Below, one piece after another: positions 1,030 to 24,000 of a DNA stretch of 24,000 nt. Within the stretch, counting starts at the first letter, position 1. Each line of letters starts with the position of its first letter. The translations under genes were made by a program, and so were the position numbers. The notes under the pieces are model-generated. The model did not search any database and was not told the DNA's origin. It saw only the letters and a program-made list of their open reading frames with translations. The DNA comes from Halobacterium rubrum (GTDB taxonomy: Archaea; Halobacteriota; Halobacteria; Halobacteriales; Halobacteriaceae), in NCBI RefSeq assembly GCF_029872365.1, contig NZ_JARXOF010000001.1; one strand, 5' to 3'.

Positions 1030-1160
1030 CGCCGCCGCGTCTCGCGTTCTGCCGTGCTACAGTCGCCGTCGAGTAGCGTCGCCGCTGTGGGTGCCCGCAG
1101 CGGGCTGCCGTGGGGTGGCTGGCGACTAGGATTATGAGGCTGGCCGCCCTCGCCCGTAGT

Positions 1161-1436: not shown

Positions 1437-1439
1437 GCG

Positions 1440-1808: not shown

Positions 1809-1853
1809 CCCCGCAAAATTCTTGCCCGACCCGCCCTTACTCGTCGTTCCCCC

Positions 1854-3231: not shown

Positions 3232-4899
3232 GTGGCGGTACTCAGGTCGTACCGGCGGTTCGTCGTCGTCGTCTGGCAGTTCCTCCCGCTGCTGTGGGGG
3301 TGGGCGCGTGACCGGCGTCGCTTCCTGCTGTTCGGCGGGAGCCGCAGCGTCACCACTGACGTCCGCCGGGAGCGCGCGCAGATCCTGCTCGAGTCACTGC
3401 TGACGCTCGGCCCGACGTTCATCAAGCTCGGGCAGCTGCTGTCGACGCGCCCCGACGTGCTGCCGCCGGAGTACATCGAGGTGCTGACGGAGCTCCAGGA
3501 CCGCGTGCCACCGGCGGACTGGGACGAGGCGAAGACGGTCATCGAGGACGAACTCGGGCCGGTCGACGAGGTGTTCGACGACTTCGACCGGGAGTCCATC
3601 AGCGGCGCGAGCCTCGGCCAGGTGTACACGGCCGAGGTCGACGGCGAACCGGTCGCCGTGAAGATCCGGCGGCCGGGCATCGAGGAGCTCGTGGAGGCGG
3701 ACCTCCGGGTCATCCGGTGGTCGATACCCATCGTCGTGCGGTTCGTCGGCGAAGGCCAGGCGTTCAGCCTCGGGAACCTCGCCGACGAGTTCTCGAAGAC
3801 CATCCGGGAGGAGATGGACTACGCCCGCGAGGGCCGGATGCTCCAGGAGATTCGAGGGAACTTCGCCGACAATTCCGACATCGTGATTCCCCGCGTGTAC
3901 GAGGACTACTCGGACGCTCGCGTGCTCACGATGCAGTACATCGCCGGGACGAAGATCTCGAACGTCTCGGAGCTCGAGGAACGCGACATCGACCGCTCGG
4001 AGGTCGCCGAGACCCTCGAACGGGCGTACCTCCAGATGATCATCGAGGACGGCGTGTTCCACGCGGACCCGCACCCGGGGAACCTCGCCGTGCAGGACGA
4101 CGGCAGCATCGTGTTCTACGACTTCGGGATGAGCGGCCGCGTGGACTCGTTCATCCAGGACAAGATCGTGGACTTCTACATCGGCGTGGCGAACCAGGAC
4201 ATCGACGGGATTCTGGACGCGCTCATCGAGATGGGGACGCTGTCCCCGGAGGCCGACCGCGCAGTGATGGCGGACGTGATGGAGCTGGCCATCCAGGACG
4301 CCCGCGGCGAGGACATCGAGACGTACCGCGTCCAGCAGATCATCGGCAAAGTCGAGGACACCATCTACGAGTTCCCGCTGCGGCTGCCCCCGAACCTCGC
4401 GCTCGTGTTGCGCGTCGCGACGGTCGTCGAGGGCGTCTGTGTCACCCTCGACCCGGACTTCGACTTCATCACGGTCGCGACGGACTACCTCACGGAGCAG
4501 GGGTACCGCGAGGAGTCCATCCGGCAGTTCGTGCAGGGGACCGCCGAGGACTTCCAGGCGGCGGCGACGTCGGCCGTCCGGGTGCCGCCGAAACTGGAGA
4601 GCGCGCTGGACAGAGTGGAGCGCGAGGACCTCCACGTGCGGGCGGACCTCGAGGACAGCAACCACGTCATCGACAAGCTGGGCCGTCGGGTCGTGCTCGG
4701 GCTGGTGCTGGCGACGAGCGTGCCGACGACGGCGTTCCTCTACGTGTCCGCGGACCTCGCGGCCACTGGCGTGTCGGCGGCGTTCACGACTTCTATCGCG
4801 CTGGCGCTGTACCGGTCGTTCCGCGAGAAGAAGAGTCTGCAGGCGAGCCCGCAGTTCACGCGCCAGAACCTCCGGGAGCGAGAGGGCGGCCCGGAGTGA
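3232..4899 (+). CDS. ABC1/UbiB-family atypical protein kinase with C-terminal TM segment(s)
   Basis: Motifs LGPTFIKLGQLLSTRPDVLPPEY, ASLGQVY...VAVKIRRPG and FHADPHPGNL are present. The GTG start lies 3 nt after the hsp20 stop. The exact start codon is uncertain. Confidence 0.88.
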   Translation: MAVLRSYRRFVVVVWQFLPLLWGWARDRRRFLLFGGSRSVTTDVRRERAQILLESLLTLGPTFIKLGQLLSTRPDVLPPEYIEVLTELQDRVPPADWDEAKTVIEDELGPVDEVFDDFDRESISGASLGQVYTAEVDGEPVAVKIRRPGIEELVEADLRVIRWSIPIVVRFVGEGQAFSLGNLADEFSKTIREEMDYAREGRMLQEIRGNFADNSDIVIPRVYEDYSDARVLTMQYIAGTKISNVSELEERDIDRSEVAETLERAYLQMIIEDGVFHADPHPGNLAVQDDGSIVFYDFGMSGRVDSFIQDKIVDFYIGVANQDIDGILDALIEMGTLSPEADRAVMADVMELAIQDARGEDIETYRVQQIIGKVEDTIYEFPLRLPPNLALVLRVATVVEGVCVTLDPDFDFITVATDYLTEQGYREESIRQFVQGTAEDFQAAATSAVRVPPKLESALDRVEREDLHVRADLEDSNHVIDKLGRRVVLGLVLATSVPTTAFLYVSADLAATGVSAAFTTSIALALYRSFREKKSLQASPQFTRQNLREREGGPE

Positions 4900-4961: not shown

Positions 4962-5732
4962 ATGTACCTCGCCGACGAAGCGTGGCCCGAACTTGGTGAG
5001 TACTTCGCCGAGGAGTCGCTGGCGCTCGTGCCGCTGGGGTCGACCGAGCAGCACGGCCCCCACCTGCCGGAGTCCACCGACCACCGCATCGCCGAGGCGT
5101 TCGCCCGCGAAGCCGCCGACCGCACCGGCTTCCTCTGCACGCCGACCGTCAACGTCGGCGTCAGTCCTCACCACCGCCAGTTCCCGGGGACGATGTCGGT
5201 CGACCCGCCAGAGTTCCGGGACTACGTGGAGTCGTTCACGCGGAACCTCGCGTCCCACGGCGTCGACCGCGTCGTGTACGTGAACGCCCACGGGGGGAAC
5301 GTCCAGCACCTCCGCGAGGTCGGGCGGCGGCTGCGGGACGACGGCACCCTCTACGCCGTCGAGTGGATGTGGGACGAGTCCATCCCGGAGCTCGTCGACG
5401 ACCTCTTCGCGCAGAACGGCCCGCACGGCGGCCCGAAGGAGACGTCGATGATGCAGTACCTCGACGGCGAGCACGTCCACGACGACCGCCTCGAAGAAGC
5501 GAGAGACGGCGGCGTGGCCAGCGTGGCGGACGCCGACACCGTCAAGCACGGCGCCCGGACCTTCTACGACGCCATCGACAACACGGACAACGGCGTGCTC
5601 GGCGACCAGACCGACGCCACCGCCGAGAAGGGCGAGCAGCTGTTCGAGGCCGCCAGCGACCAGCTCGTCCAGCTCTGCGAGTGGCTCGACGCCCAGGCGT
5701 TCGAGGACCTGCTGCCGAAAGAGCACGTGTAG
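4962..5732 (+). CDS. Creatininase-family amidohydrolase (creatininase/ArfB-like)
   Basis: The metal-binding signature LVPLGSTEQHGPHLP is present, followed later by VNAHGGN. Length is 256 aa. Confidence 0.85.
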   Translation: MYLADEAWPELGEYFAEESLALVPLGSTEQHGPHLPESTDHRIAEAFAREAADRTGFLCTPTVNVGVSPHHRQFPGTMSVDPPEFRDYVESFTRNLASHGVDRVVYVNAHGGNVQHLREVGRRLRDDGTLYAVEWMWDESIPELVDDLFAQNGPHGGPKETSMMQYLDGEHVHDDRLEEARDGGVASVADADTVKHGARTFYDAIDNTDNGVLGDQTDATAEKGEQLFEAASDQLVQLCEWLDAQAFEDLLPKEHV

Positions 5733-5814
5733 CTGGGGGACTGGCCGTCGTCGACAGTGGCACCCGGACTGCCGGCGGCGTCCGAGTTATCCCGACCGGG
5801 CGCGAACCCGGCGT

Positions 5815-6888
5815 ATGGACGCTCCCACCTTCGAGCTAGAGCGGTGGTTCGCCGAGGTCGAGGCCGGCGCGGACGTGATGCTCGCGGAGAGCGGCGTGCG
5901 CAGCCTGCCGGCGAGCGACTTCGACACCGACCCCGGAGAACTGGGGTACGTAATTCCGACGAACGGCGAGCCGGCTCTGCGGGCGGCCATCGGCGAGCGC
6001 TACGGCCGCTCGGCCGACGAGGTGGTGACCACGGTGGGGACCCAAGAGGCGAACTTCCTCGCGTTCCAGTCGCTGTTGTCGGCCGACAGCCACGCCGTCG
6101 TCGTCACGCCGACCTACGAGAGCCTGCACGCGATTCCCGACGCAATCTGCGACGTGACGCGGGTCGAACTCCAGGCGCCGGACTGGACGCTGAACGTCGA
6201 CGCCGTCGCCGACGCAATCCGGCCGGACACCGACCTCGTCGTGCTGAACAACCCGAACAACCCGACGGGCCGCCAGCACGACGCGGCGACCGTCGAAGCG
6301 GTCTACGACCTCGCGGCGGACGCCGACGCCTACCTGCTCGGCGACGAGGTCTACCGACAGCTCTGCCCGGACCCCACGCCCGCCGTGGCGAGCCTCGGCG
6401 AGCACGGCATCAGCACCGCCGGGCTGTCGAAGTCCTACGGGCTGGCCGGCTGCCGCTTCGGCTGGCTCGCCGGCGCCGAGGACGTGGTCGAGGACGTCGA
6501 GGCGTGGAAAGACTACACGACCATCTCCCCCGGGAAGTTCGGCCACCACGTCGCCGAGCAGGTGTTCGGTGTCGGTGACTTCGAGTCTCGGGCGGGCGAG
6601 CTCCGGCAGGCGGCACTGGACCACGTCGCGACGAACGCCGAGATTACTGCGGAGTGGGCCGACGAGCACGGTCTCGGCTGGGACGACCCCGTGGGCTGCA
6701 ACGTCCTGCTCGACGTTCCCGATGGCTTCGACGACTCGCGGGCGTTCTGCCGGGCGGTCGTCGACGAGGCGTCGGTCGTGCTCGCACCGGGGGCCTGCTT
6801 CGGGGTCGAGGGAACGTTCCGGCTCGGATTCGGACTGCCGACCGGGGAGCTCCGCGAGGGGCTGGAACGCGTGGGAGCCGTGCTCTAG
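5815..6888 (+). CDS. Pyridoxal-phosphate-dependent aminotransferase, class I/II
   Basis: Motifs LNNPNNPTG and SKSYGLAGCRFGW (PLP lysine in the SKS context) are present. Length is 357 aa. Confidence 0.85.
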   Translation: MDAPTFELERWFAEVEAGADVMLAESGVRSLPASDFDTDPGELGYVIPTNGEPALRAAIGERYGRSADEVVTTVGTQEANFLAFQSLLSADSHAVVVTPTYESLHAIPDAICDVTRVELQAPDWTLNVDAVADAIRPDTDLVVLNNPNNPTGRQHDAATVEAVYDLAADADAYLLGDEVYRQLCPDPTPAVASLGEHGISTAGLSKSYGLAGCRFGWLAGAEDVVEDVEAWKDYTTISPGKFGHHVAEQVFGVGDFESRAGELRQAALDHVATNAEITAEWADEHGLGWDDPVGCNVLLDVPDGFDDSRAFCRAVVDEASVVLAPGACFGVEGTFRLGFGLPTGELREGLERVGAVL

Positions 6889-9077: not shown

Positions 9078-11369
9078 ATGGGGTCCGGATTACTCACACG
9101 CGTACGGGGGAGCTACGGGACGAAGCTCGCCCTCGCTCTGGTCGTCGTCGTCGCGCTCTCTGTCGGCGTCGGCGCGCTGGTCTACCAGCAGACCACCGAC
9201 CAGCTCGAGGGCGACGTCCGCGCCGACCTGACCGGGTCGGCGGACGCCCGAGCGGACCACCTCGACGCCTGGCTCTCGAACGTTCGCGGACAGACAATGC
9301 TGGCGTCCAGTCAGCCGGCCCTCGCCTCCGGCGACGAGGCCGAGGTCGAAGCGTCCCTCGACAGGCTCGCCGGCAGCGACGAACTACCAGACGGCGTCGT
9401 CGCCGCCCACTACTACGACGGCCCGTCGACGACCATCGAAATCAGCTCGAACGACGACTTCGCCGGCGTGAACCCCGCCGAGCAGGGCGCGCCGTTCGCC
9501 ACCGACCCGCCGACGTTCGACGGCGCCGACGACGTCGCGGTCACGAAGCCGTTCACGGTGCCGGTCGCGGACTTCCCGGTGCTCTCGGTCGTCTCGCCGA
9601 TCGAGGGCGCCGAGGGCAAGTTCCTCATCTACATGGTGAACGTCAACGAGCTCACCGCCGACTTCGACCAGGCAGTCGACGGGAGCAGCACCGTCGTCGT
9701 CGCCGAGGACGGGACGTACGTCGCGCACCCGGACCAGTCGCGGGTGCTGACCGAGCACGACGGCGCCGAGGGGATGCTCGAGCAGTCGCTGTCCGAGTCG
9801 ACGTTCATGCAACACGACGGCATGGTGATGGCGGCGTCGCCCGTCGACGGCGCGCCGTGGACCGTGATGGTGCACGCGCAGCAGAGCGAGGCGTTCGCGC
9901 TCGGTGACTTCGTCGCGTCCAGCCTGATGGGGCTCGTGCTCATCACGGTCGTGAGCCTCTCGCTGGTCGGCGTGACGGTCGGGTCGACGACCGTCACGTC
10001 TCTCCAGCACCTCTCGCGGCGCGCCGACGAGATGGCCGAGGGGAACCTCGACGCGGACATCGACACCGGCCGGAGCGACGAATTCGGGACGCTCGCTGGC
10101 TCCTTCCGGGAGATGCGGGACTCTCTGTCGACGTCGCTGTCCGAAGCCGAGACCGCCGAGGCCGAAGCCCAGCAGGCTCGCGCGGAGGCCGAACAGCAGC
10201 GACAGGAGGCCGAACAGGCGCGCGAGAGCGCCGAGGAAGCCCGCCGCGAGGCCCAGGAGACCGCCCGCGAGCTCGAGGCCGCGGCGACCGACTACGAGGA
10301 CGCGCTGACGGCCGTCGCGGACGGCGACCTGACGCGTCGCGTGGACGCCGACCGCGACCACGACGCGATGGCGCGCGTCGGCCGCGCGGTCAACCAGATG
10401 CTCGACGACATCGAGACGAGCGTCGCCGCGGCGTCCGCGTTCGCCGACCACGTCTCCGACGCCGCCGTCCGCGTCGAAGGCGGCGCCACCGACGCGATGG
10501 ACGCCGGCTCCGACGTCTCCACGGCCGTCGACGAGATCTCGGACGGCGCTACCGAGCAGACCGACCGGCTCCACGAGGTCGCGGGCGAGGTCGACGACCT
10601 CTCCGCCAGCGCCGAGGAGGTCGCGAAGACCGTGGCGTCGCTTGCCGACACCGCCGGGCAGGCCGCCGACGCGGTCGAGGACGGCCGCGAGGCGACCGAC
10701 GAAGCGGTCGCGACGATGGACGACGTCGCCGACGACGCCGAGGCGGCCGCCGACGCGATGGACGCCCTCGACAGCGAGATGGAGGACATCGGGGAGATCG
10801 TCGACGTCATCGCCGACATCGCCGAGCAGACGAACATGCTGGCGCTGAACGCGTCCATCGAGGCCGCTCGCACGGGCGCCGACGGCGACGGGTTCGCCGT
10901 GGTCGCCGACGAGGTCAAGGGCCTCGCCGAGGAGTCGCGGGACGCAGCCGAGGACATCGAGGAACGACTCCTCGACCTCCAGGGCCAGGTCAGCGACGTC
11001 GCAGACGAGATGCGCGACACCAGCGAGAACGTCGCCGACGGCCGGACGACCGTGGGAGACGCCGCGACCGCGCTGGACGACGTCGTGGAGTTCGTCGCCG
11101 AGACGGACTCCGCAGCGGGCGAGATCCGGGACGCGACCGACCGGCAGGCCGAAGCCGCCTCCCGGGTGGCCGGCGCCGTCGACGAGGTCGCCGGTATCAG
11201 CGAGGAGACGGCCGCCCAGGCGACCGACGTCGCCGAGTCGGCCGACGAACAGACCGAGACGCTCTCGACGGTCGGGGACGCCGCCGCCGACCTCGCGGAG
11301 CGCGCCGCGACCCTCGACGACCTGCTCGCGGACTTCGACGCGCGCGGCGGCGACGAGGAGGTGAACTGA
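9078..11369 (+). CDS. htrII: Methyl-accepting phototaxis/chemotaxis transducer, HtrII-like (763 aa)
   Basis: TM1 ([22 protein letters not shown]) is followed by a ~250-aa extracellular domain and TM2 ([20 protein letters not shown]). Then come two HAMP-like segments and the invariant MCP hairpin [48 protein letters not shown]. The stop lies 1 nt before the sopII ATG. The track ORF (7827..) is an artefactual upstream extension. Confidence 0.9.
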
Positions 11370-11370: not shown

Positions 11371-12120
11371 ATGGCACTCGAGACGTGGTTCTGGGTCGGT
11401 ACGGTCGGCATGATCGCCGGCACGCTGCTGCCGCTCCGGGACATGATCCGCTACCCGTCGCATCGCCGCTACGACCTCGTGCTGGCGGGCATCACGGGGC
11501 TCGCCGCCATCGCGTACGCAACCATGGGGCTCGGTCTGACGGCGACGACCGTCGGCGAGCACACGGTGTACATCGCGCGGTACGTCGACTGGCTGGTGAC
11601 GACGCCGCTCATCGTGCTGTACCTCGCGATGCTCGCGAAGCCGTCCCGCCGGACCTACGTCTGGCTGCTGCTCGCCGACGTGTTCGTCATCGGCGCCGGC
11701 ATCGCCGCCGCACTCAACCCCGGGTCCCAGCGCTGGCTGTTCTTCGCCGCCGGCGCCGTCGGCTACGTCGTGTTGCTGTACGGCCTGCTGCGGACGCTGC
11801 CGCGCGCTCTGGGCGACGACCCCGACCCGCGCGTCTGGTCGCTGTTCGTGACGCTGCGCAACATCACGGTCGTGCTCTGGACGCTGTACCCCGTCGTCTG
11901 GATGCTCGCGCCCGCCGGCGTCGGCATCCTCCAGACGGAGATGTACACCATCGTCGTTGTCTACCTCGACTTCATCTCGAAGGTAGCGTTCGTCGCGTTC
12001 GCCGCGCTCGGCGCGGACGCCGTCGACCGTCTCGTCACTGCGACGGCCACCGGCTCCTCGGCGTCGATGCCGGACCCGATGGAGACGCCGGCCGCGACTG
12101 ACGCCGGCGACGACGACTGA
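11371..12120 (+). CDS. sopII: Sensory rhodopsin II (phoborhodopsin), type-1 microbial rhodopsin
   Basis: The ORF has 7 TM segments and the helix C motif ARYVDWLVTTPLIV (counterion Asp73). Helix G is VVYLDFISKVAF with the Schiff-base Lys204 (AAG at 11980-11982). From memory it is nearly collinear with H. salinarum SopII (MAL.TWFWVG.VGM..GT.LP.RD.IR.PSHRRYDLVLAGITGLAAIAY). Confidence 0.93.
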   Translation: MALETWFWVGTVGMIAGTLLPLRDMIRYPSHRRYDLVLAGITGLAAIAYATMGLGLTATTVGEHTVYIARYVDWLVTTPLIVLYLAMLAKPSRRTYVWLLLADVFVIGAGIAAALNPGSQRWLFFAAGAVGYVVLLYGLLRTLPRALGDDPDPRVWSLFVTLRNITVVLWTLYPVVWMLAPAGVGILQTEMYTIVVVYLDFISKVAFVAFAALGADAVDRLVTATATGSSASMPDPMETPAATDAGDDD

Positions 12121-12380
12121 CCGCCAGCGTCTTTTCGCTACTGCCCGTAGCCCCGGACGGCCGATGACGACGCAACCGGGCCGACCCGGGGTGGCTCCTG
12201 CGGGACGACGAGCCCTATGAGTGCCGAGGCCAACTGCCGATCCGTTCCCGTTCGACGGTATCTCACAGACGTGGTTCGCTATTCACCGGACGCGACTCGT
12301 CGTGACTCCCGAGCGCTACACGTGGCGATTGCCTCGGCCTGGGGCCCGTTCTGCCGGTGGACGGGAAATCCACCCTAAAC

Positions 12381-12397: not shown

Positions 12398-12411
12398 AAT
12401 CATGTAACAAC

Positions 12412-13761
12412 ATGGTACGCAGTACCAGACGAGAGGTTCTCAAGGTGAGCGGCGCACTGCTCGGCGGGATTGCGGCCGGAACCACGGTCACGGCGGCGAC
12501 GTCGACGGACCGGTACATCGTCCAGACCAGGGGGCGCGGGCTCCCCGACGGCGTCGACGTCGTCCACGAGATGCCGGGGACCAATCTGGCCGTCGTAACC
12601 GGGGACGAGAGCGCGTTGCAGGCGGCGAAGGGCGTGCGCGAGTTCGCGCCGGACATCGAGCTCGAACTGAACGAGCCGGCGACGAACGCGGACGTCCCTT
12701 CGTTCGACGCCTCGGAGTACGAGGGCCAGCCCGGGGACTTCCTGCAGTGGGACAAGGCCGACCTGGACGTGCCAGCGGCCCACGAGACCACAGAGGGCGA
12801 GGGCACGCGCGTCGCCGTCATCGACTCCGGTGTGCTGGAGACGCACCCCGACCTCGCGGGCCCACTGAACGTCGACCTCTCGCGGAACTTCACCGACGAC
12901 GGCGGTGACCACAACCCCGTCGGCGGCGACGACCACGGCACCCACGTCGCCGGCATCGTCGCGGCGGACAACGGGGGCGGTATCGGCGTCAACGGCACTG
13001 CGCCGGAGACCGACCTCGTCGATTGCCGGGTGTTCTCCGAGGGCGGCGGCGCGTCGTTCGCGGACATCCTCGCGGCCGTGGTCTACAGCGCGAACGTCGA
13101 CGCCGACGTGGCGAACCTCTCGCTGGGGGCGTACCCGGTTCCGCGGCAGACTAACGGCCAGTTCTACGGCAAGGTCCTCAACAGCGCGATGACGTACGCG
13201 AACAAGGAGGGGACTCTGCTCGTCATCGCGGCCGGCAACGACAGCGCCGACCTCCAGCACGACAGGAACTTCGTCAGCCTGCCGAACGAGGGTGCACAGG
13301 CGCTCTCGGTGTCGGCGACCGGACCCATCGGGTACGGCTGGGACGCCGACGGCGACGGCGATGCGACGGACCTCGCCGACCCGCCGGAGAGCCCGGCGTT
13401 CTACACGAACTACGGCACGAACGCCGTCACGCTCGGCGCGCCGGGCGGCGACGCCGACCCAGCCGCCATCGGCACTGACGTCCCGTGGTTCAACGACCTC
13501 GTGTTCAACACGGTGTTCAGCTACGAGGACACCGACGGCGACGGCGAACCCGATACACAGGTCCCCGGCTACGGCTGGAAGGCCGGCACCTCGATGGCCG
13601 CGCCGAACGTCGCCGGCGCCGCCGCGCTGGTCAAGAGCGCGAACCCGGACTACAACGCCAACCAGGTGGAGGCCGCACTCAAGAACGCGGCCGACGTGCC
13701 CGACGGCTACGACAAGGCGTTCTACGGCAGCGGCTACCTCAACATCCTCGACGCACTGTAG
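12412..13761 (+). CDS. Tat-secreted subtilisin-like serine protease (peptidase S8, halolysin-like) with an N-terminal propeptide
   Basis: A twin-arginine signal is present (MVRSTRREVLKVSGALLGGIAAGTTVTAA). The catalytic triad motifs are RVAVIDSGV (Asp), HGTHVAGIVAA (His) and GTSMAAPNVAGAAAL (Ser), with the oxyanion Asn in AAGND. Confidence 0.9.
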   Translation: MVRSTRREVLKVSGALLGGIAAGTTVTAATSTDRYIVQTRGRGLPDGVDVVHEMPGTNLAVVTGDESALQAAKGVREFAPDIELELNEPATNADVPSFDASEYEGQPGDFLQWDKADLDVPAAHETTEGEGTRVAVIDSGVLETHPDLAGPLNVDLSRNFTDDGGDHNPVGGDDHGTHVAGIVAADNGGGIGVNGTAPETDLVDCRVFSEGGGASFADILAAVVYSANVDADVANLSLGAYPVPRQTNGQFYGKVLNSAMTYANKEGTLLVIAAGNDSADLQHDRNFVSLPNEGAQALSVSATGPIGYGWDADGDGDATDLADPPESPAFYTNYGTNAVTLGAPGGDADPAAIGTDVPWFNDLVFNTVFSYEDTDGDGEPDTQVPGYGWKAGTSMAAPNVAGAAALVKSANPDYNANQVEAALKNAADVPDGYDKAFYGSGYLNILDAL

Positions 13762-13770
13762 GGAGAACGG

Positions 13771-13807
13771 CGACGCGCGTTGGGGACCGCGTCGACGACC
13801 ACCTTTT
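13771..13807 (+). terminator. Hairpin (CGACGCG...CGCGTCG) followed by a TTTT tract downstream of the protease stop
   Basis: A 7-bp inverted repeat lies at 13771-13777 and 13788-13794. An oligo-T run follows at 13804-13807. Confidence 0.35.
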
Positions 13808-14080
13808 CTCGACGGCGCCGTCCCAGTTCCGGATCTGCCGCTCGAAGAGTAGTAAGAGAGAGAGTGGGCGAATTTCGGATTGAGCGGCGTCTATAGCCGT
13901 TCTAAACCTATTCTCTCTGGATAGATTGTGAGTCGTGAGTGCCGAGGCCGACTTTTCGCGCACACGCAACTGGCGGACCGCTGGTGCTGGCAGTCTCACT
14001 CTCTCTGGCTGCCCACTGCACTCCAGTCGACCGTCGTCCGTGCCCCCTTCCTACTTGGTGGCTCGCGTCGTCACACCTGT

Positions 14081-14923
14081 ATGCCAGCGTCAGAGACGCC
14101 GACCGCCGATTCGGTCACCGGGTCACAGACAGCAACTGGCGCCACGCCACCCAGCGACGCCCCTCGCTATCGCCGCCTCCGTCGGTGGAACGCGGTGATG
14201 GCGGTCCTGCACTTCGTGCAGGGCGCGCTGATGGTGTGGCTGGCCGAAGACGTGCGGTGGCCGATTACGCGGACGCGCTACGAGTTCGACGTCGCGACGG
14301 AGTCCATCGCGCCGGTGAGCGTGCCCTGGGTGGACGTGACGCTCCCGCTGCTGGTCGCGGGGTTCCTCTTCGTCTCCGCGCTCGCACACGCCGTCATCGC
14401 CACCGCCCGGTACGAGCAGTACGTCGCGTACCTCGAGCGCGGGATGAACCCCTACCGGTGGTACGAGTACTCGGTGAGCGCGTCGCTGATGATCGTCGTC
14501 ATCGGGATGCTGGCGGGCGTCTGGGACCTCGGGACGTTGCTGGCGCTGTTCGGACTGGTCGCGGTGATGAACCTCTGCGGGCTGTTGATGGAGCAGCGCA
14601 ACGAGACCACCGAGACGACCGACTGGACGCCGTACTGGGTGGGCACGTTCGCCGGCCTGATTCCCTGGGTCGTCATCGCGGTGACGTTCGTCGGGACGGT
14701 GACCGCCGCCGCCGGCGAGTTCCCCGAGTTCGTCATCTACATCTACGTCTCCATCTTCGCGTTCTTCAACCTCTTCGCGGTGAACATGGCGTTGCAGTAC
14801 CGGGAGACCTGGCGGTGGAGCGACTACCTCTTCGGCGAGAAGGCGTACGTCGCGTTGAGCCTCGTCGCGAAGTCCCTGCTGGCGTGGCAGGTGTACTTCG
14901 GGACGCTGAACTCCCCCATCTGA
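14081..14923 (+). CDS. Heliorhodopsin (280 aa, 7-TM retinal protein of the inverted-topology HeR family)
   Basis: Seven hydrophobic segments are present. TM7 is GEKAYVALSLVAKSLLAWQVYFGTL (Lys264, AAG at 14870-14872) and TM3 is NPYRWYEYSVSASLMIVVIGM (Glu129). TM1 contains VLHFVQ (His44) and TM2 contains SALAHAV (His103). From memory of HeR 48C12 these align with GERAYIVLSLVAKSALAWQIFSGTL, FRWVEYSLSSSVMIVLIA, GVFHLLQ and SALFHFIV. The start is set at ATG 14081; the track start at 13928 adds a W/C/R-rich, non-halophilic extension. Confidence 0.85.
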   Translation: MPASETPTADSVTGSQTATGATPPSDAPRYRRLRRWNAVMAVLHFVQGALMVWLAEDVRWPITRTRYEFDVATESIAPVSVPWVDVTLPLLVAGFLFVSALAHAVIATARYEQYVAYLERGMNPYRWYEYSVSASLMIVVIGMLAGVWDLGTLLALFGLVAVMNLCGLLMEQRNETTETTDWTPYWVGTFAGLIPWVVIAVTFVGTVTAAAGEFPEFVIYIYVSIFAFFNLFAVNMALQYRETWRWSDYLFGEKAYVALSLVAKSLLAWQVYFGTLNSPI

Positions 14924-14986: not shown

Positions 14987-15688
14987 TCACTCCTCGCTTG
15001 TCGTGACGTCCTCGTAGGTGACTTCGGTGCCGGAGGCGACCGGCTGCAGGAGGTACGACCCGGTCTGGCCGCGCTTGACCGGCGTGAAGTCCGCGACGAA
15101 GCTCGTGCGCTGGTCCTCGCGCACCTCGAACGGCTCCTTGAACTGGAGCGGCGCGTTCCCGGGCGTGCCGACGTCGGCGTCGCCGCCGCCGTCCGCGAGC
15201 GGCGCCGAGACGCCCGAAACGTCCAGCTGGAGGAACGCGTAGCTCCCCGTCTCGACCTCGCGGTCGTCGACGAGCGCGCTGTCGCCGTCCTGCAACTCCA
15301 CGAGGTCGGCCTCCTGGGCCTCGTCGAACTCGTGGTACTCGCGGCCGTCGCTCTCGTCGACGTCCTCGGCGTCCTGCTCCTCGACTACCGCCGTGGTGGC
15401 GTCCGACCCGGCGTCGTCGGTCTCCGTCTCGTCTTCTGTCGCCGTCGCGTCCGCGGCGTCCCCGCTCTCACTGTCCTTCAGCCAGATGCCCTCGATGGTG
15501 ACCACGCACGTCTCGAAGTCGGCGATGTCGCCGGGTGCGTCTTTCACCGTCGTGGACAGCGTACCCGTACTCGACCCGCTGCCACCGGTACAGCCCGCGA
15601 GGCCAGCGAGGCCGGCCGCGCCGAGCGCGCCGGCCGCCTTCAGGTAGTCGCGTCGGGATGCTGTCGTGTCGGCGAACTTGTCTCGCAT
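14987..15688 (-). CDS. Tat-dependent lipoprotein, DUF4382-like
   Basis: The N-terminus MRDKFADTTASRRDYLKAAGALGAAGLAGLAGCTGG has a twin-Arg motif and a lipobox Cys. The body matches my recollection of DUF4382 (VKDAPGDIADFE..VTIEGIWL, DLVELQDG, ETGSYAFLQLDVSG, SYLLQPV). The internal ATG at 15688 is preferred and sits 29 nt from a TATA-like GATATA. Confidence 0.7.
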   Translation of the reverse strand: MRDKFADTTASRRDYLKAAGALGAAGLAGLAGCTGGSGSSTGTLSTTVKDAPGDIADFETCVVTIEGIWLKDSESGDAADATATEDETETDDAGSDATTAVVEEQDAEDVDESDGREYHEFDEAQEADLVELQDGDSALVDDREVETGSYAFLQLDVSGVSAPLADGGGDADVGTPGNAPLQFKEPFEVREDQRTSFVADFTPVKRGQTGSYLLQPVASGTEVTYEDVTTSEE

Positions 15689-15826
15689 ACACGTATCCGG
15701 GGAGCGCGAGCCGGATATACCGAGCACACGCGGAGCCCGAATTTGCCCGAGTTGGGTCGAGTAGGCGTCGGTTGTGGCGAGAAGGTGTCGGGTGGCTTGC
15801 CACGTCGCCGCGACCACCGGTAGCCG

Positions 15827-17956
15827 TCAGAGTTTGTCGGCGTTCTTCGCCTGGTCGCTGCGACGGCGGGCCTGATCGAGGCGGTTGTCTGCCGCGTTCG
15901 CGAGCCCGGACGGGAGTGAGTCGCGCGCCTCGGAGAGTCTCGTGGAAACCTGGTCGAGGCGGTTCTGGACGGTCTCGAGTTTCTGGTCGGCGTTCCCTCG
16001 GTCGCCGGCTTCGGCGCGCTCCGCGGCACGGCGGGCGGCCTCGGCGACGGCGTCGAGTGCGTTCGCCAGCCCGTTCACGGCGTTCTCCTGCCCGCCACCA
16101 CCCCCGTTGCCCCGGTCGTCGTCGGTGTCGTCGGAGTCGCCGCCCCCTTCGACGGCGGCGACCTCGTCCCGGGTCTCCGCGGCGATGTCGGCGAGGTAGC
16201 TGGCGAGTGACGCCTTCCCGGTCTGGGGGTTCTCGACCCGGACACTGTCTGCGTCCCCACCGGGATTGACGCGGTCGGCACCGATCGCGTCGTCGCTGTC
16301 CCGTACCTCGGTCGTGAACGCGCCGCCCCGGTGGACGTAGACGGCGTCCGGCCCCGCCAGCGGCGCGTCGTACAGCCGGCCGGCGAAGTCGTCCTCGACG
16401 GCGAGGTCGGTGAGGTCGGCGTCCACCTCGCTCGGGTCGACCTCGAGTTTCACGCTGTGCTCGCGGGCGACCACCGGGATTTCGCCGTCGACGCCGGCGG
16501 CCGTGACGCTGCCGTCGCCGCCGCTATCGCTGCTGTCGTCGCCGCCCACGGCGACCGTCTCGCTGTGGGGTTCGACGCCCGCGCCGTTGACGGTGAGCCT
16601 GTGCTCGCCCTCGGTGACGCCCTGCACGACGGCGATGCCGTTGAACGTCGGGACGGCCTCCGGCTCGCTCTGCAGCAACGCGACCAGTTCGAGGGACGAC
16701 GACTCGGTCGTCAACCCCTCGTTCTCGGGGGCGTCGTCGCTCGTGATGGCGTTTGTCACGCCCGCGACCACCTGATTGACGGGGGACGGGTCCCCGATGG
16801 CGTCGTAGCGCTCGGCCAGCGCCTGCCGGTGGCGCGCCTCGCTGATGTCCGCCGCCGGGTTCGTGTACCGGGGGCTCTGCCAGGGGACGCCGGTCGTCGT
16901 GATGTGACCGGCGACGGCGTCCTCGACGAAGTCGGGGATGGCGAACTCGAAGCTCAACTGGGGACCGACGAAGTCCGCGACGTGCTCGAGGTCGGTCGTC
17001 GGCCGGAGTTCGTACTCGACGTCCGGGTCGGCGTCGCTGGCGCCCGCGAAGTCGAACTGGAGCCCGGTCTCGCGCTCGGGGAGGTCCGGCGGGGACTCCA
17101 GCGCGTCGAACGACCGCACGGTCAGCGACTCGTCGACGAGGTCCTCGGCGCCGACCGCCGGCAGGTCGTCGTGGTCGTACAGCGGCTCGCCGTCCAGCTC
17201 GGGGACGCTGTACGGCAGCGCGAACTGTTCGTCGCGCGGCAGCCCGTACGCCAGCGGGATGGCGGCGATGGCCTCGACGCCCTCGAGGACGCTGTTCGTG
17301 ACGTCGGCGACGCTGCCGTCCAGCGGCAGACGCTGGAACTTGTCGGCGTCCTCGTTCACCGAGAGGCCACTGGAGTGCGAGCCCAGTTCCGTGAGGATGC
17401 GGGGGCGGCGGCTGCCGTCCGGGTCGAGGAACTCGTTGTTCGGGACTTTCCGGGAGTGCGAGCTCGCCACGTACAGCTGTGGCTCCCCGGTCTCGGTGTC
17501 CACGAACACGTGCAGGACCTCCCAGTCGTGCCAGTGGAAGTTCGTGGCGAACTGGTCGAACGCCGAGTAGAACCAGAACTGGACGACCGCAAGCGGCGAC
17601 GCCTCGTACTCGACGACGTTGAAGAACGACACGGGGTCGACCGGGTCGCCGTCGTCGCCGCTGCGCTCCGCGTAGCCGTTCAGCGCCTCGAAGCCGTCGA
17701 CGACCGTCTCCCCGTCGCGCTCGACCTCGTAGGGCTGGGGGTCCGTCGGGAACCACTGCTCGTGCTCGTCGAAGTACAGCGTCGGCGCGAACTGCTCGGC
17801 GAGCGACCGCGCGCGGTCCGCGTCCTCGACGACCGACGCGTCCCCGTCGTCGCTGGTCTCGAACAGTGAGCAGCCCGCGAGCGCCGACGTGGCGCCTGCT
17901 GCGATGCCGCCGAGCACGGTGCGCCGGTTCACCGCCTGCGAGCGCTCTCCCGTCAT
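15827..17956 (-). CDS. Large Tat-dependent lipoprotein (709 aa) with a Vps62/DUF946-like N-domain, an Ig/CarboxypepD_reg-like middle region and a Gly-rich/coiled-coil C-terminus; function unknown
   Basis: The N-terminus MTGERSQAVNRRTVLGGIAAGATSALAGCSL has a twin-Arg motif and a lipobox. FAPTLYFDEHEQWFPTDP and NFHWHDWEVLHVFVD resemble the Vps62-family YAP..Y...E...P and H.GDWE motifs. GC3 is strong throughout and the composition is acidic. Confidence 0.75.
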   Translation of the reverse strand: MTGERSQAVNRRTVLGGIAAGATSALAGCSLFETSDDGDASVVEDADRARSLAEQFAPTLYFDEHEQWFPTDPQPYEVERDGETVVDGFEALNGYAERSGDDGDPVDPVSFFNVVEYEASPLAVVQFWFYSAFDQFATNFHWHDWEVLHVFVDTETGEPQLYVASSHSRKVPNNEFLDPDGSRRPRILTELGSHSSGLSVNEDADKFQRLPLDGSVADVTNSVLEGVEAIAAIPLAYGLPRDEQFALPYSVPELDGEPLYDHDDLPAVGAEDLVDESLTVRSFDALESPPDLPERETGLQFDFAGASDADPDVEYELRPTTDLEHVADFVGPQLSFEFAIPDFVEDAVAGHITTTGVPWQSPRYTNPAADISEARHRQALAERYDAIGDPSPVNQVVAGVTNAITSDDAPENEGLTTESSSLELVALLQSEPEAVPTFNGIAVVQGVTEGEHRLTVNGAGVEPHSETVAVGGDDSSDSGGDGSVTAAGVDGEIPVVAREHSVKLEVDPSEVDADLTDLAVEDDFAGRLYDAPLAGPDAVYVHRGGAFTTEVRDSDDAIGADRVNPGGDADSVRVENPQTGKASLASYLADIAAETRDEVAAVEGGGDSDDTDDDRGNGGGGGQENAVNGLANALDAVAEAARRAAERAEAGDRGNADQKLETVQNRLDQVSTRLSEARDSLPSGLANAADNRLDQARRRSDQAKNADKL

Positions 17957-21050: not shown

Positions 21051-22868
21051 TTACGTGTCGGTCTCGTTCTCGGGCGCTGCCGCCGTCTCGTTCAGCACGA
21101 CGGTGACGTTCGCGTCGGCCGTCACCGCGACCCCGTCAGCGACGAACGGGCCGTCGTCGAGGCCGTCCGTGGCGACGAAGTCGTAGGTTTCGTTGCCGCT
21201 GTTCTCGACGTGCGGCATGGCGATGAGCGTCTGGTTCTCGATGAGCGTCTGGTTCTCGGCGAAGTCGGCCCCGGAGACGTTGAACAGTTCGACGGTGAGG
21301 TTCTCGTAGTCGCCGGCTTCGAGGTACTCCGAGACGCCGACGACGCTAGCCGTCACATCTCCCTCGAGGAGGGAGTCGTTGTGGATGGCGACGTAGCCGT
21401 CCTCGGGCAGCGAGACGGCCGAGACGTTGACGGCGGTCCCGTTCGAGGTCTGGTCCTCGAAGGTCACCGACGCCATCGCGGTCTCGTTCTCCTCGGTCTC
21501 GTTGCCGTCGGTCGGCTCTTCGGTCGTCGTCGGTTCCTCGGTCGTCTCGTTGCCGGTGTCCGTCTCGTTGTCCATCGCCGTCTCGTCCAGTTCGACGGTG
21601 ACGTTCGCGTCGGCCGTCACCGCCGCGCCGTCAGCGACGAACGGGCCGTCGTCGAGGCCGTCCGTGGCGACGAAGTCGTAGGTTTCGTTGCCGCTGTCTT
21701 CGACGTGCGGCATGGCGATGAGCGTCTGGTTCTCGGTCAGCGTCTGGTTCTCGGCGAAGTCGGCCCCGGAGACGTTGAACAGTTCGACGGTGAGGTTCTC
21801 GTAGTCGCCGGCTTCGAGGTACTCCGAGACGCCGACGACGCTAGCCGTCACATCTCCCTCGAGGAGGGAGTCGTTGTGGATGGCGACGTAGCCGTCCTCG
21901 GGCAGCGAGACGGCCGAGACGTTGACGGCGGTCCCGTTCGAGGTCTGGTCCTCGAAGGTCACCGACGCCATCGCGGTCTCGTTATCGTCGGTCTCGTTGC
22001 CGTCGGTCGGCTCTTCGGTGGTGGTGGGTGCCTCGGTGGTGGTGGGTGCCTCGGTAGTGGTGGGTGCCTCGGTGGTGGTGGGTGCTTCAGTCGTGGTTGG
22101 TGCCTCGGTGGTGGTGGGTGCTTCAGTCGTGGTTGGTGCCTCGGTGGTGGTGGGTGCTTCAGTCGTGGTGGGTGCCTCGGTGGTGGTTGGCGCTTCAGTC
22201 GTGGTTGGTGCCTCGGTGGTGGTTGGCGCTTCAGTCGTCGTCGGTTCTTCGGTCGGTTCTTCGGTCGGTTCTTCGGTCGGTTCTTCGGTCGGTTCTTCGG
22301 TCGGTTCTTCAGTCGGCTCTTCGTCCGGCGGGCCCGCCTCGGCCGCTTCGACCGAGAGCGTGCCGACGCTGAGGCCCTCGACGGTTAGCGACCCGAAGCT
22401 CAGGCCGCCGCCCGCGAGCATGCCCTGCGCAACGTCACCGTTCGAGCGGTCCCACGTGACGGTGTCAGCCTCGACGTCCTCCAGCATGATGGAGTCGACC
22501 TCGGCGTCGACGGTCACGGTGTTGTTCTCGATGGTGATGGACGCCGAGTCGATGTTCTCGATCTGGACGGCTCCGGCCTCGAAGCCCTCGACGTTGTCAC
22601 CGAGGGCCGACCCGAACGCGCTCCGCAGCGCGTCCTCGGTGCCACCGATCTCGCCCAGTTGGAACGTCAGCCCCTCGACTTCGACGTCCTCCATCTGGAC
22701 GCGATCGGCTGTCACGTCCTCGGCTGTGGCTGTCGAGCCGGCCGCTCCGGCCTGCTGTGCTGGTGTGCCCGGCGACGTGGTGGCGACCGCCGCGCCGGCC
22801 GACAGCGCGACTGTCAGTGCCATCAGTACGGCCCCGATCTTGAGTCTCCGCGTGCTTGTGCCTGTCAT
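21051..22868 (-). CDS. Secreted, heavily glycosylatable surface/extracellular protein with Thr/Pro/Glu linkers and two tandem ~165-aa domains (resembling the haloarchaeal DUF7282-type domain)
   Basis: A signal peptide is present (MTGTSTRRLKIGAVLMALTVALSAGAAVA). Then come a repetitive beta-rich N-domain, (PTEE)n and (TTTEAP)n tracts, and two near-identical domains (VTFEDQTSNGTAVNVSAVSLPEDGYVAIHNDSLL...ENQTLIAMPHVE.SGNETYDFV). The ATG at 22868 is preferred over the GTG at 22874. There is no C-terminal TM or PGF-CTERM anchor. Confidence 0.85.
   Translation of the reverse strand: MTGTSTRRLKIGAVLMALTVALSAGAAVATTSPGTPAQQAGAAGSTATAEDVTADRVQMEDVEVEGLTFQLGEIGGTEDALRSAFGSALGDNVEGFEAGAVQIENIDSASITIENNTVTVDAEVDSIMLEDVEADTVTWDRSNGDVAQGMLAGGGLSFGSLTVEGLSVGTLSVEAAEAGPPDEEPTEEPTEEPTEEPTEEPTEEPTEEPTTTEAPTTTEAPTTTEAPTTTEAPTTTEAPTTTEAPTTTEAPTTTEAPTTTEAPTTTEAPTTTEAPTTTEAPTTTEEPTDGNETDDNETAMASVTFEDQTSNGTAVNVSAVSLPEDGYVAIHNDSLLEGDVTASVVGVSEYLEAGDYENLTVELFNVSGADFAENQTLTENQTLIAMPHVEDSGNETYDFVATDGLDDGPFVADGAAVTADANVTVELDETAMDNETDTGNETTEEPTTTEEPTDGNETEENETAMASVTFEDQTSNGTAVNVSAVSLPEDGYVAIHNDSLLEGDVTASVVGVSEYLEAGDYENLTVELFNVSGADFAENQTLIENQTLIAMPHVENSGNETYDFVATDGLDDGPFVADGVAVTADANVTVVLNETAAAPENETDT
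21081..22022. repeat. Tandem direct duplication, period 495 bp (copy A 21081-21527, copy B 21576-22022), roughly 98% identical
   Basis: Aligning the two copies by eye shows only about ten substitutions over ~445 nt. The duplication lies inside the glycoprotein CDS. Confidence 0.9.
22017..22250. repeat. Thirteen tandem 18-nt units (GGTGGTGGTGGGTGCCTC-like) encoding (TTTEAP)n on the minus strand, with a 36-nt higher-order alternation
   Basis: Units were counted directly. Units alternate between GGTGGTGG(T/G)... and AGTCGTGG... variants. Confidence 0.9.
22251..22322. repeat. Six tandem 12-nt units (GGTCGGTTCTTC) encoding (PTEE)n on the minus strand
   Basis: Counted directly. Five units are perfect and one is a variant (AGTCGGCTCTTC). 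Confidence 0.9.
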
Positions 22869-23208
22869 GCCCACTAGATGACTCGGCGGCCAACCGCATT
22901 GTTATACTCTGGCTCGAATCACCAAACGGCGTGCTACTCACGACTTCTCTAACCCTACCTGTTAGCCGGTCGTTGCGGTTTCCTGCGGGACGGACGGGTG
23001 CGATTCGAAAGCCGGCGTTACGCCACGAACTCGTCGCAGTCACCTCGTTCTGGTGTCCCGCGCCGGCAGCCGGCGCGCGCTCGGGCCAGTTGTACACTCG
23101 GCTTATCAGCGCGGTCCCAGCCGGGACGCAACGCACCCCGCTTCGGAGTGCCGGCAGGCGACGTGGGGACGGCTGGTGTTTTTGTCGCCGGCGTGCCAAC
23201 ACCCACGC

Positions 23209-24000
23209 ATGCAGGGGAGTCTCCCCGGGGAACGTGACGTGACTGTCGTCGGCGGCGGCTTCGGTGGCCTCGCCGCGACGGCGTACCTGGCGCGCGCCGG
23301 CGCCGACGTGACGCTGCTCGAACGACACGACGCGGTCGGCGGCCGCGCCGGCGTCCTCGAACGCGACGGCTTCCGGTTCGACACCGGGCCGTCCTGGTAC
23401 CTGATGCCGGACGTCTTCGAGCGGTTCTTCGACCACTTCGACCGAGAGCCGGAGGATTACTACGACCTCGAACGGCTCGACCCCCAGTACAGGGTGTTCT
23501 GGAAGGACGGCGACTCGGCGACGATCGAACCGCACCGCCGGAACGCCCACGAGCTGTTCGAGTCCTACGAGGACGGCGCCGGCGACGCCCTCGAGGCGTA
23601 CCTCTCGCGGACCGCGCGGAACTACGAACTCGCGATGAACCGCGTGGTCTACCCGGACCGCACGAGCTTCCGGGACTACGCCAGCACGGAGATGCTGCCG
23701 CTGGCGCCCAGATTCCGGCTGTTCGGGAACATGGACGACTACGTCTCGCGGTTCTTCGACCACCCGAAGCTCCGCCAGCTCCTGGAGTACACGCTCGTGT
23801 TCCTCGGCGGCGCCCCCCACAACACGCCGGCGCTGTACTCCATCATGAGCCACGTCGACTTCGACGGGAACGTCTTCTACCCCGAGGGCGGCATCGCGGG
23901 CGTCGTGGACGCGCTCGCGGACCTCGCCGTCGAGCAGGGCGCGACCATCGAGACGGGCGTCGAAGTCGAGGGTATCCGGGGCGAGCGGGGCGAGTTCACG
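23209..24000 (+). CDS. crtI: Phytoene desaturase/dehydrogenase (CrtI family), N-terminal ~264 aa, 3' end truncated by the window edge
   Basis: This ORF is absent from the ORF track because it has no stop inside the window. My translation is MQGSLPGERDVTVVGGGFGGLAATAYLARAGADVTLLERHDAVGGRAGVLERDGFRFDTGPSWYLMPDVFERFF...PALYSIMSHVDF...FYPEGGI. It carries the FAD-binding GxGxxG fold and CrtI signature segments. A T-rich TATA-like TTTTTG at 23181-23186 lies about 26 nt upstream. Confidence 0.9.
   Translation, partial: MQGSLPGERDVTVVGGGFGGLAATAYLARAGADVTLLERHDAVGGRAGVLERDGFRFDTGPSWYLMPDVFERFFDHFDREPEDYYDLERLDPQYRVFWKDGDSATIEPHRRNAHELFESYEDGAGDALEAYLSRTARNYELAMNRVVYPDRTSFRDYASTEMLPLAPRFRLFGNMDDYVSRFFDHPKLRQLLEYTLVFLGGAPHNTPALYSIMSHVDFDGNVFYPEGGIAGVVDALADLAVEQGATIETGVEVEGIRGERGEFT

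Follow-up and report, generated by a model that had tools for sequence, protein, structure and literature searches.

The main finding of this work is that the open reading frame (ORF) at positions 14081..14923 (+ strand) of a 24,000-nucleotide stretch of the Halobacterium rubrum genome (contig NZ_JARXOF010000001.1 of assembly GCF_029872365.1; the whole stretch is hereafter called the window) is a genuine, intact heliorhodopsin (HeR) gene, whose product probably works as a functional, slow-cycling, non-pumping light sensor with a partner encoded elsewhere. The reading frame runs from the ATG at 14081 to the stop codon at 14921-14923 and encodes 280 amino acids (aa). This protein matched the complete models of the two families dedicated to heliorhodopsins, both far above their curated cutoffs: PF18761 (Heliorhodopsin; 320.8 bits, the cutoff being 26.7, with E 6.6e-96, residues 33-276, model 1-242 of 242) and the NCBIfam equivalog NF038020 ("heliorhodopsin HeR"; E 3.9e-105, 350.8 bits against a cutoff of 100, model 1-244 of 244). 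No match to PF01036 (Bac_rhodopsin) was obtained for it even at E<=1. Its best matches in the PDB were the entries of TaHeR (6IS6/7U55; E 2.6e-78, 50% identity over 249 residues), followed by 48C12 at 39% identity (E ~1e-49), and it is 100% identical to the RefSeq protein WP_272904605.1.

The residues that define the family are all in place. Equivalences were taken position by position from the HMMER alignments, and all the codons given here lie on the + strand. Lys264 (codon 14870..14872), in transmembrane helix (TM) 7 within the motif S260-xxx-K264, corresponds to K238 of TaHeR and K241 of 48C12 and is predicted to be the retinal Schiff-base lysine, whereas Glu129 (14465..14467) in TM3, equivalent to E108 of TaHeR and E107 of 48C12, is the predicted counterion. 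The first conserved HeR histidine, which belongs to the cytoplasmic Schiff-base cavity, is His44 (14210..14212) in TM1, equivalent to H23 in both reference proteins, and the second is His103 (14387..14389) in TM2, equivalent to H82 of TaHeR and H80 of 48C12. These four positions are invariant in 66 haloarchaeal homologues. Ser260 aligns with S234 of TaHeR and S237 of 48C12, and E129, S133, and S99 align with the counterion E107 and the stabilizing serines S111 and S76 of 48C12, so that every element that holds the protonated retinal Schiff base in the solved heliorhodopsins (K264, E129, S99, S133, and S260) is found in the H. rubrum protein. The polar cytoplasmic cavity also aligns with that of 48C12 (H44, H103, N37, N123, R126, Y130, Y114, and E253). 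When 36 positions of 48C12, among them those named as key by Kovalev et al. (PMC7049168), were mapped, most of them were kept (N37, H44, Q47, P61, S99, H103, Y114, N123, R126, W127, E129, Y130, S133, E171, P195, W196, Q239, Y249, E253, S260, K264, W269, and Q270), and the residues of the Schiff-base cavity and the hydrophobic barrier listed in that work are retained as well, namely N37, L33, S99, Y114, L118, N123, R126, W127, Y130, S133, E171, P195, Q239, Y249, L250, and E253. The signatures of type-1 rhodopsins are absent, as helix C reads RWYEYS instead of RYxDW and helix G reads SLVAK, of the SxxxK type, instead of DxxxK.

Within the family the protein stands closer to the archaeal than to the actinobacterial reference. 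Its retinal pocket carries the variants of TaHeR (Asn164 together with Val160, and Met236), not those of 48C12. Compared with TaHeR, from Thermoplasmatales archaeon SG8-52-1 (PDB 6IS6, 7U55, and 7CLJ), the halophile protein is longer by an N-terminal tail of 28 residues and by five residues in the EF loop. 48C12, from a freshwater actinobacterial fosmid (PDB 6SU3, 6UH3, and 9LJJ), shares the Schiff-base cavity residues but belongs to a different HeR subfamily, with N138, I142, and Q213 replaced by V160, N164, and M236, respectively, and with Y179 of the dimer interface replaced by T202.

The predicted structure agrees with this assignment. An AlphaFold2 model built on the 66 haloarchaeal sequences (mean predicted local distance difference test score, pLDDT, 84; predicted template-modeling score, pTM, 0.75) contains seven helices and a two-stranded hairpin at residues 59-87, and residues 1-20 form a disordered tail with pLDDT below 50. 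The hairpin (strands 59-70 and 75-87; 14255..14341, +; pLDDT of the block ~89) is the predicted extracellular AB loop; it is the region of PITRTRYEFDVATESIAPVSVPWVDV, 26 residues long, which separates the first hydrophobic segment from the second, and its Pro61 corresponds to the conserved Pro40 of 48C12. A Foldseek search of the PDB with the model gave strong scores for heliorhodopsins only (TaHeR, E 2e-20, with a target-normalized TM-score of 0.81; 48C12, E 2e-13), and the type-1 structures, namely bacteriorhodopsin, halorhodopsin, and sensory rhodopsin II (SRII), appeared only at E>=0.05, the best at 0.056. With the helix limits of the model, 11 Lys and Arg residues fall in predicted cytoplasmic segments and 3 outside, a count that serves as a proxy for topology, and five Arg stand just before TM1. 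This charge bias, along with the homology to heliorhodopsins of known topology, fits a cytoplasmic N-terminus, that is, the inverted (N-in) orientation. Thus the initial annotation of this ORF, made from the sequence alone, was borne out on each structural count: a 280-aa ORF with seven TM segments at these positions, the lack of type-1 signatures, the hallmarks SLVAKSLLAWQ (Lys264) and RWYEYSVS (Glu129) with the two histidines aligned to their counterparts in TaHeR and 48C12, and a long TM1-TM2 loop predicted to form the HeR beta-hairpin. The checks that it proposed (family profile search, comparison with the two reference proteins, predicted fold) gave the same answer, and the charge proxy is in line with the N-in topology that it expected.

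Several observations indicate that the gene is maintained by purifying selection and is adapted to its host, since its GC content at third codon positions (GC3) is host-like (0.94, with 0.88-0.96 in flanking genes), its dN/dS ratio is low, and more than 80 positions that are invariant among the 66 homologues, including Lys264, Glu129, His44, and His103, are all kept. The dN/dS values (Nei-Gojobori method, residues 29-280, four homologues) were 0.11 against the closest relative, found in a metagenome on a Halobacterium-like contig, whereas Halosimplex, Halapricum, and Salinibaculum gave 0.12-0.14. The ATG at 14081 is also the start chosen in RefSeq, and close homologues are likewise 280 aa long. 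The N-terminal tail that follows it (residues 1-28; 14081..14164, +) is acidic and rich in Thr, Ala, and Pro, variable in sequence yet similar in length across the 280-aa homologues, and predicted to be disordered and cytoplasmic. Two other starts were considered and rejected. The frame is open in the 5' direction as far as a GTG at 13928, which would give 331 aa, but the extension of 51 codons has a GC3 of 0.67 against 0.94 for the gene, and its basic, Cys- and Trp-rich composition is unlike that of haloarchaeal proteins. A start at Met40 (241 aa) would drop part of the alignment with TM1 of TaHeR, which runs from position 29 on. Many gene calls of haloarchaeal heliorhodopsins in public metagenomes and Logan assemblies do begin at this internal Met40 and lose the first half of TM1 (for example 3308..4033 of locus L082 and protein clusters P0018-P0027 and P0036-P0040). 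For this reason exact-sequence lookups of the true 280-aa protein fail: the exact sequence was not found on contigs, and the cluster lookup did show the NCBI entry. At the nucleotide level, the Logan assembly contig DRR723649_66 is 100% identical to positions 10891-19818 of the window.

The H. rubrum HeR is an already known, ordinary member of a known family; it is named in RefSeq, and publications on heliorhodopsins of class Halobacteria go back to 2021 or earlier. The entries WP_272904605.1 and MDH5019469.1 ("heliorhodopsin HeR [Halobacterium rubrum]", also listed as "MULTISPECIES: heliorhodopsin HeR [Halobacterium]") represent the same gene, annotated automatically, and literature searches found no experimental work on WP_272904605.1. 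More than 4000 HeR homologues were found; in the best 120, identity is 67-89% throughout, class Halobacteria is the source of all those that carry a name, and most of the NCBI entries in this set already carry the HeR label; the genera represented in it are Halosimplex, Salinarchaeum, Halovivax, Halorubrum, Halapricum, Natronoarchaeum, Salinibaculum, Halolamina, Halobaculum, Halosegnis, Halorubellus, Halovenus, and Halodesulfurarchaeum. With one genome per species, 52 haloarchaeal loci hold heliorhodopsins 61-86% identical to that of the window. The NCBI-annotated haloarchaeal proteins (for instance those of Halosimplex salinum, Salinibaculum litoreum, Halapricum, Salinarchaeum, Halovivax, Halorubrum, and Halorubellus) belong to the same length class, with a variable tail and invariant key residues, but they come from other genera and have different immediate gene neighbors in nearly every genome. 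A search of PLSDB (2024) returned no haloarchaeal plasmid with a HeR gene, Chloroflexota and Lactococcus being the only matches; a haloarchaeal plasmid of 160 kb, plasmid unnamed1 of Halosimplex sp. TS25 (NZ_CP180413.1, locus L050, 10001..10774), nonetheless encodes a 61% identical HeR, therefore some HeR copies reside on mobile replicons. Haloarchaea have a single membrane and an S-layer. Heliorhodopsins have been described as restricted to monoderm hosts (PMC8612252), and H. rubrum is a host of this kind. Bulzu et al. placed "aerobic Halobacterota" in HeR cluster C12 and devoted a supplementary figure to class Halobacteria (bioRxiv 10.1101/2021.02.01.429150; PMC8612252). The initial annotation regarded a HeR beside SRII and its transducer as unexpected; this is so relative to the classical retinal-protein set of Halobacterium salinarum, but not in the wider class, in which heliorhodopsins are common and named in RefSeq.

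On the analogy of TaHeR and 48C12, we hypothesize that the protein would bind all-trans-retinal as a protonated Schiff base to Lys264 in TM7, with Glu129 in TM3 as counterion; as the genome also encodes an intact SRII, a supply of retinal is implied. Light would isomerize the retinal, and the Schiff-base proton would pass to a water-filled cytoplasmic cavity lined by His44, His103, Asn37, Asn123, and Glu253 and later return, whereas the extracellular half, closed by hydrophobic residues, would let nothing cross the membrane. A long-lived, O-like intermediate lasting seconds would then be the signaling state. The steps of this photocycle are modeled on those described for TaHeR and 48C12 (PMC7049168; summarized in bioRxiv 10.1101/2025.11.27.691015). 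The signaling state may modulate a partner protein by direct contact, for which precedents are the regulation of glutamine synthetase by AbHeR (PMC9529153) and of the ABC exporter OmrDE by OcHeR (PMC11109279). Both are of the same family and have a proposed light-dependent binding of the partner. They differ from the window HeR in that their partners are encoded in the same operon, while the latter is adjoined by the gene of an S8 protease, across a gap of 319 nucleotides (nt), and by a convergent DUF4382 gene.

The genes around HeR were as the initial annotation had described them, and no domain is fused to the protein, also as it had noted. Upstream, the sensory rhodopsin II gene sopII (11371..12120, +; PF01036 E 1.3e-61, with NpSRII chains as best PDB matches) follows the gene of its transducer HtrII (9078..11369, +, the start being approximate; HAMP and MCPsignal domains plus a weak dCache_1 below cutoff), whose stop codon lies 1 nt before the sopII start. 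The SRII protein shares 100% identity with "sensory rhodopsin II [Halobacterium rubrum]" and 81% with its equivalent in H. salinarum, and HtrII is 77% identical to its H. salinarum counterpart. The end of this operon at 12120 stands 1.96 kb 5' of HeR. Between them lies a co-directional gene for a subtilisin-like S8 protease with a twin-arginine translocation (Tat) signal (12412..13761, +; PF00082 E 9.8e-45; N-terminus MVRSTRREVLK). Downstream and convergent with HeR are two Tat lipoprotein genes, a DUF4382 gene (14987..15817, -; PF14321 E 9.3e-19; signal RRDYLK...LAGC), whose start is uncertain, the public gene call in L082 being 14987..15688, and a gene encoding 709 aa (15827..17956, -) with no Pfam or NCBIfam family. 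The latter product is a large conserved haloarchaeal envelope protein, with 877 homologues across many haloarchaeal genera, the best 120 of them 62-77% identical and all labeled hypothetical. A phyletic coupling between it and HeR was rejected, since its homologues are widespread in Halobacteria and occur in Haloarcula, Haloferax, Halorussus, and H. hubeiense, which are absent from the HeR lists.

HeR most likely stands alone with its own promoter, and its partner is not identifiable from its neighbors, as suggested by the upstream gap, the convergent downstream gene, and the lack of a dominant neighbor family. The gap (13762..14080, +) extends over 319 nt between the S8 stop and the HeR ATG and presumably holds the promoter. 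A scan for sigma-70 promoters and intrinsic terminators gave 0 promoters and 1 terminator-like site inside the coding sequence, a bacterial model not suited to archaea. In Natronoarchaeum, Halapricum, and Halosimplex (L015, L018, and L024) the motif CTTCCCACAGATGTATG, followed by an AT-rich stretch, occurs ~30-45 nt 5' of the HeR start as a possible promoter or regulatory element; in the window there is no more than a loose resemblance to it (CTTCCTAC...CACCTGTATG). As regards the neighbor families, all ORFs within 5 kb of HeR in 54 haloarchaeal loci were clustered all against all, and Pfam was run on 148 first and second neighbors, with genes called using a filter of GC1>GC2 (GC content at first and second codon positions) and GC3>=0.8. 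These 148 proteins spread over 168 Pfam families, the commonest being MatE (7), ABC_tran (5), DUF429 (4), and methyltransferases (4), and no dominant conserved operon partner was found among the 54 loci. The recurrent classes within 5 kb were multidrug-resistance (MDR)-type ABC exporters (10 loci), PAS histidine kinases (8), S8 proteases (8), and MATE transporters (6), besides Usp, CSD, and eIF-1A, none of them general. The associations with ABC exporters and histidine kinases echo earlier proposals (PMC11109279; PMC8612252), and neither class adjoins HeR in the window. In one Halobacteriales metagenome-assembled genome (L008), a type-1 rhodopsin gene (1000..1815, +; PF01036 E 6.9e-48) lies ~190 nt 5' of HeR (2002..2820) on the same strand, the only such pairing in the 54 loci.

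Comparison with H. salinarum showed where the two loci part. Positions 1-12232 of the window are collinear with the H. salinarum sopII locus (blastn), with a common gene order of HAD hydrolase, HSP20, ABC1 kinase, creatininase, IF5A, arginase, NIF3, HtrII, and SRII. Only a class I/II aminotransferase gene (5815..6888, +; block 5716..6868) departs from this order: it stands between those of creatininase and IF5A in the window and has no counterpart at that position in the H. salinarum locus. Collinearity ends at 12232, exactly at the 3' end of the C/D-box small RNA (sRNA) gene sR-tMet (12159..12231, +; Rfam RF02163 at 63.8 bits, the gathering score being 50), which lies 38 nt after the sopII stop, and the next 10 kb of H. 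salinarum contain no homologue of the S8, HeR, DUF4382, or 709-aa genes. H. salinarum thus retains sR-tMet after sopII, without HeR there. In the closest relative (contig NODE_582), whose HeR and SRII are each 89% identical to those of the window, the order is HtrII, SRII, ~0.9 kb, sR-tMet, ~11 kb of unrelated genes (the last a divergent PAS histidine kinase gene), HeR, a cold-shock gene, and eIF-1A. The window also has HeR upstream of the CSD and eIF1A genes, but an inserted block of 4.8 kb, which encodes DUF4382, the 709-aa lipoprotein, and a FemAB-like acetyltransferase, separates it from them. The distance between sopII and HeR is 1.96 kb in the window and 12.4 kb in NODE_582, and their proximity therefore reflects a common chromosomal region, not an operon.

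The small RNA gene recurs beside HeR well beyond Halobacterium. A profile of six sR-tMet genes, searched against the 54 haloarchaeal HeR loci, placed sR-tMet within 10 kb of HeR in 12 of them (22%), from at least eight genera, and within 330 nt in four genera. It comes closest to HeR in Halolamina (20 nt), Halosimplex carlsbadense (113 nt), Halapricum hydrolyticum (323 nt), and Natronoarchaeum (329 nt). In loci numbered with HeR at ~10001, the gene occupies 9600-9672 in L015, 9589-9678 in L018, 9817-9888 in L024, and 10791-10863 in L051, and it also occurs in L016, L023, L028, L032, L034, L039, and L041. By a back-of-envelope estimate, a gene of ~73 nt, assumed to be single-copy, in a genome of 3-4 Mb would fall within 10 kb of a given gene in ~0.6% of cases. 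Since the observed share is 22% over at least eight genera, the comparison of 10-kb flanks suggests that the linkage between sR-tMet and HeR is old and that HeR was lost in H. salinarum. An 18-nt copy of the sR-tMet 3' end (TGAGTGCCGAGGCCGACT; 13936..13953, +) lies 127 nt 5' of the HeR ATG and is a direct repeat of 12218-12235, so that the repeat, TGAGTGCCGAGGCC(A/G)ACT, flanks the S8 gene; 0 of 100 shuffles gave two matches. The same 17-mer adjoins HeR in Natronoarchaeum, Halostella, and Halolamina, and in Halostella (L022) only a 17-nt remnant is present, 150 nt 3' of HeR. The 3' flank of the copy at 13936-13953 resembles that of the genuine sR-tMet of Natronoarchaeum, the one 329 nt 5' of HeR. 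The repeat resembles an att-type duplication, as would result from an insertion at the sRNA 3' end, and the S8 gene of the window looks like a secondary insertion. Of the signs of a mobile island around HeR, this repeat was the only one found; no integrase was recognized among the window ORFs scanned.

Putting these data together, we infer that HeR is an old haloarchaeal gene at this locus that was lost by H. salinarum, not a recent insertion. On the most economical account, HeR would have stood beside sR-tMet in an early haloarchaeon; in Halobacterium sopII would have been placed on the other side of sR-tMet; H. rubrum would then have gained the S8 cassette at the sR-tMet 3' end, with the att-like duplication; and in H. 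salinarum the HeR side would have been lost or replaced. The comparison with H. salinarum that the initial annotation had called for thus confirmed that HeR is missing from the 10 kb compared downstream of sopII and sR-tMet, but it favors a loss there over a recent insertion in H. rubrum.

The S8 gene and the lipoprotein genes raise the question of whether HeR acts with its envelope-facing neighbors, through light control of the secreted protease and/or of the Tat lipoproteins that would lead to extracellular proteolysis or envelope remodeling; an envelope-related role is what the initial annotation had hinted at. The AB hairpin and the C-terminus of the modeled HeR are predicted to face outward, and S8 orthologues 59-84% identical occur within 5 kb of HeR in five genomes, from Natronoarchaeum, three Halorubellus species, and Halovenus halobia (L015, L028, L032, L034, and L042), with 709-aa orthologues (60-63%) also nearby in four of these five, in shuffled order and strand. 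The S8 of the window is 84% identical to that of Halorubellus, more than the two heliorhodopsins are to each other (68-70%), and in six genomes, from four genera, the orthologous Tat-secreted S8 has kept within 5 kb of HeR through repeated rearrangement. That HeR in a subset of haloarchaea, this Halobacterium included, switches extracellular proteolysis or envelope remodeling by light, acting on or co-regulating this S8, is quite improbable, and we regard the more general envelope role as equally improbable. Relative to HeR, S8 takes a different order, orientation, and distance (127 nt to 4.3 kb) in every genus, and the two never form an obvious operon; the S8 gene of the window is bracketed by the 18-nt repeat, as if secondarily inserted; S8 proteases account for 2 of the 148 close neighbors; the closest HeR relative (89%) has the PAS histidine kinase gene on its 5' side and lacks the S8, DUF4382, and 709-aa genes at the locus; and 709-aa homologues are widespread in genera such as Haloarcula and Haloferax. 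The recurrence of the S8 and 709-aa genes near HeR is therefore read as residual synteny, and the hint of an envelope role is a weak one. An input of HeR into the adjacent SRII/HtrII phototaxis pathway, which would make the 2-kb proximity to sopII functional, appears still less probable. Both genes share one region in two Halobacterium genomes, and the pairing in L008 puts a type-1 rhodopsin gene immediately 5' of HeR; against this stand the 12.4 kb and the unrelated genes between sopII and HeR in the nearest relative, and a tblastn search of the loci with the window SRII and HtrII found relatives beside HeR only in L008 (weakly SRII-like) and L001 (a different Htr, 34%). The true anchor common to both genes is sR-tMet. 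SRII and HeR are both seven-helix retinal proteins with a lysine in helix G and a presumed sensory role, but HeR lacks a cognate Htr, and in addition to the absence of a PF01036 match and the structural E>=0.05 it is predicted to be inverted in the membrane relative to SRII, an orientation in which the SRII-type contact of helices F and G with the TM helices of HtrII would not be expected.

Other alternatives concern the protein itself. A 2025 preprint, based on structures and docking, proposed for the family a "two-antenna" rhodopsin (bioRxiv 10.1101/2025.11.27.691015), and the window HeR might accordingly be mainly a carotenoid-binding protein, with a xanthophyll or bacterioruberin at a lateral fenestration, besides or instead of signaling. 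The fenestration residues Y164, N204, and A207 of TaHeR are kept as Y185, N230, and A233, as are G171 and F203, whose positions were inferred from the spacing in Cv06, as G192 and F229; the sole difference is C168 (position likewise inferred from Cv06), which becomes T189. The carotenoid-rich membranes of haloarchaea also speak for it. Nevertheless, we consider this role unlikely, though it is the least improbable of the alternatives, since the proposal does not state what use is made of the absorbed energy and nothing in the window bears on it. That the window HeR transports ions, driven or gated by light, in the manner of the viral V2HeR3, which is reported to transport protons, is slightly less probable than the envelope role. 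Proton transport occurs in some viral heliorhodopsins (PMC12873467), and charges at the positions equivalent to V92, L96, I138, I225, and L276 are found in atypical, possibly transporting subfamilies (Kovalev et al., PMC7049168); in the window HeR these five positions of the extracellular half are all hydrophobic, P195 is kept, and the closest characterized homologues, TaHeR and 48C12, show no transport (PMC7049168). The least probable of all is a decaying or non-functional remnant. H. salinarum does without HeR at this locus and no partner is evident, but the frame is intact, the 80 and more invariant positions are kept, and the dN/dS of 0.11-0.14 and the host-like GC3 are those of a gene under selection.

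We therefore favor the slow-cycling, non-pumping light sensor with a partner encoded elsewhere, and the points that weigh against this interpretation should be set beside it. Retinal binding, the photocycle, and non-transport are deduced from homology at 39-50% identity, and the topology from charge bias and homology only, with an AB loop that carries three Arg. No biochemically characterized haloarchaeal HeR was found in literature searches. Ten partner groups recur with heliorhodopsins (glutamine synthetase (GS), NAD+ synthetase, photolyase, MerR, TerC, ABC transporter, SDR, alpha/beta hydrolase, DUF2177, and DUF2238; PMC11109279), none of which appears among the window ORFs scanned, so that no candidate signaling target is at hand. 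The promoter and transcription start of HeR were not identified, and an Rfam search of the upstream region at E<=10 gave no match. As for the history of the locus, the loss scenario for H. salinarum draws on 10 kb of flank, not on the whole genome.

Some further features of the window lie apart from HeR. Its tRNA genes are 12 kb and 9 kb away, a tRNA-Ser(CGA) at 1445..1534 (+) and a tRNA-Ala(GGC) at 23307..23397 (+), both called by ARAGORN; the latter, at 91 nt, is unusually long and may contain an intron or be a miscall. A gene at 21051..22874 (-) encodes a secreted protein in which long Pro/Thr-rich repeats, (EPTE)n and then ~12 copies of APTTTE, precede and separate two DUF7282 domains.

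The discovery value of this gene is small, as an automatic equivalog model already names it. Its practical value is modest but real, because the physiological role of heliorhodopsins is unsettled and few of their hosts are cultured aerobes whose genus has established genetics. In the cultured H. rubrum a HeR lies beside a canonical SRII/HtrII pair, and H. salinarum, a close relative, offers a natural HeR-less comparator at the same locus. The linkage between sR-tMet and HeR, finally, provides a simple marker for tracing the gain and loss of heliorhodopsins in haloarchaea.

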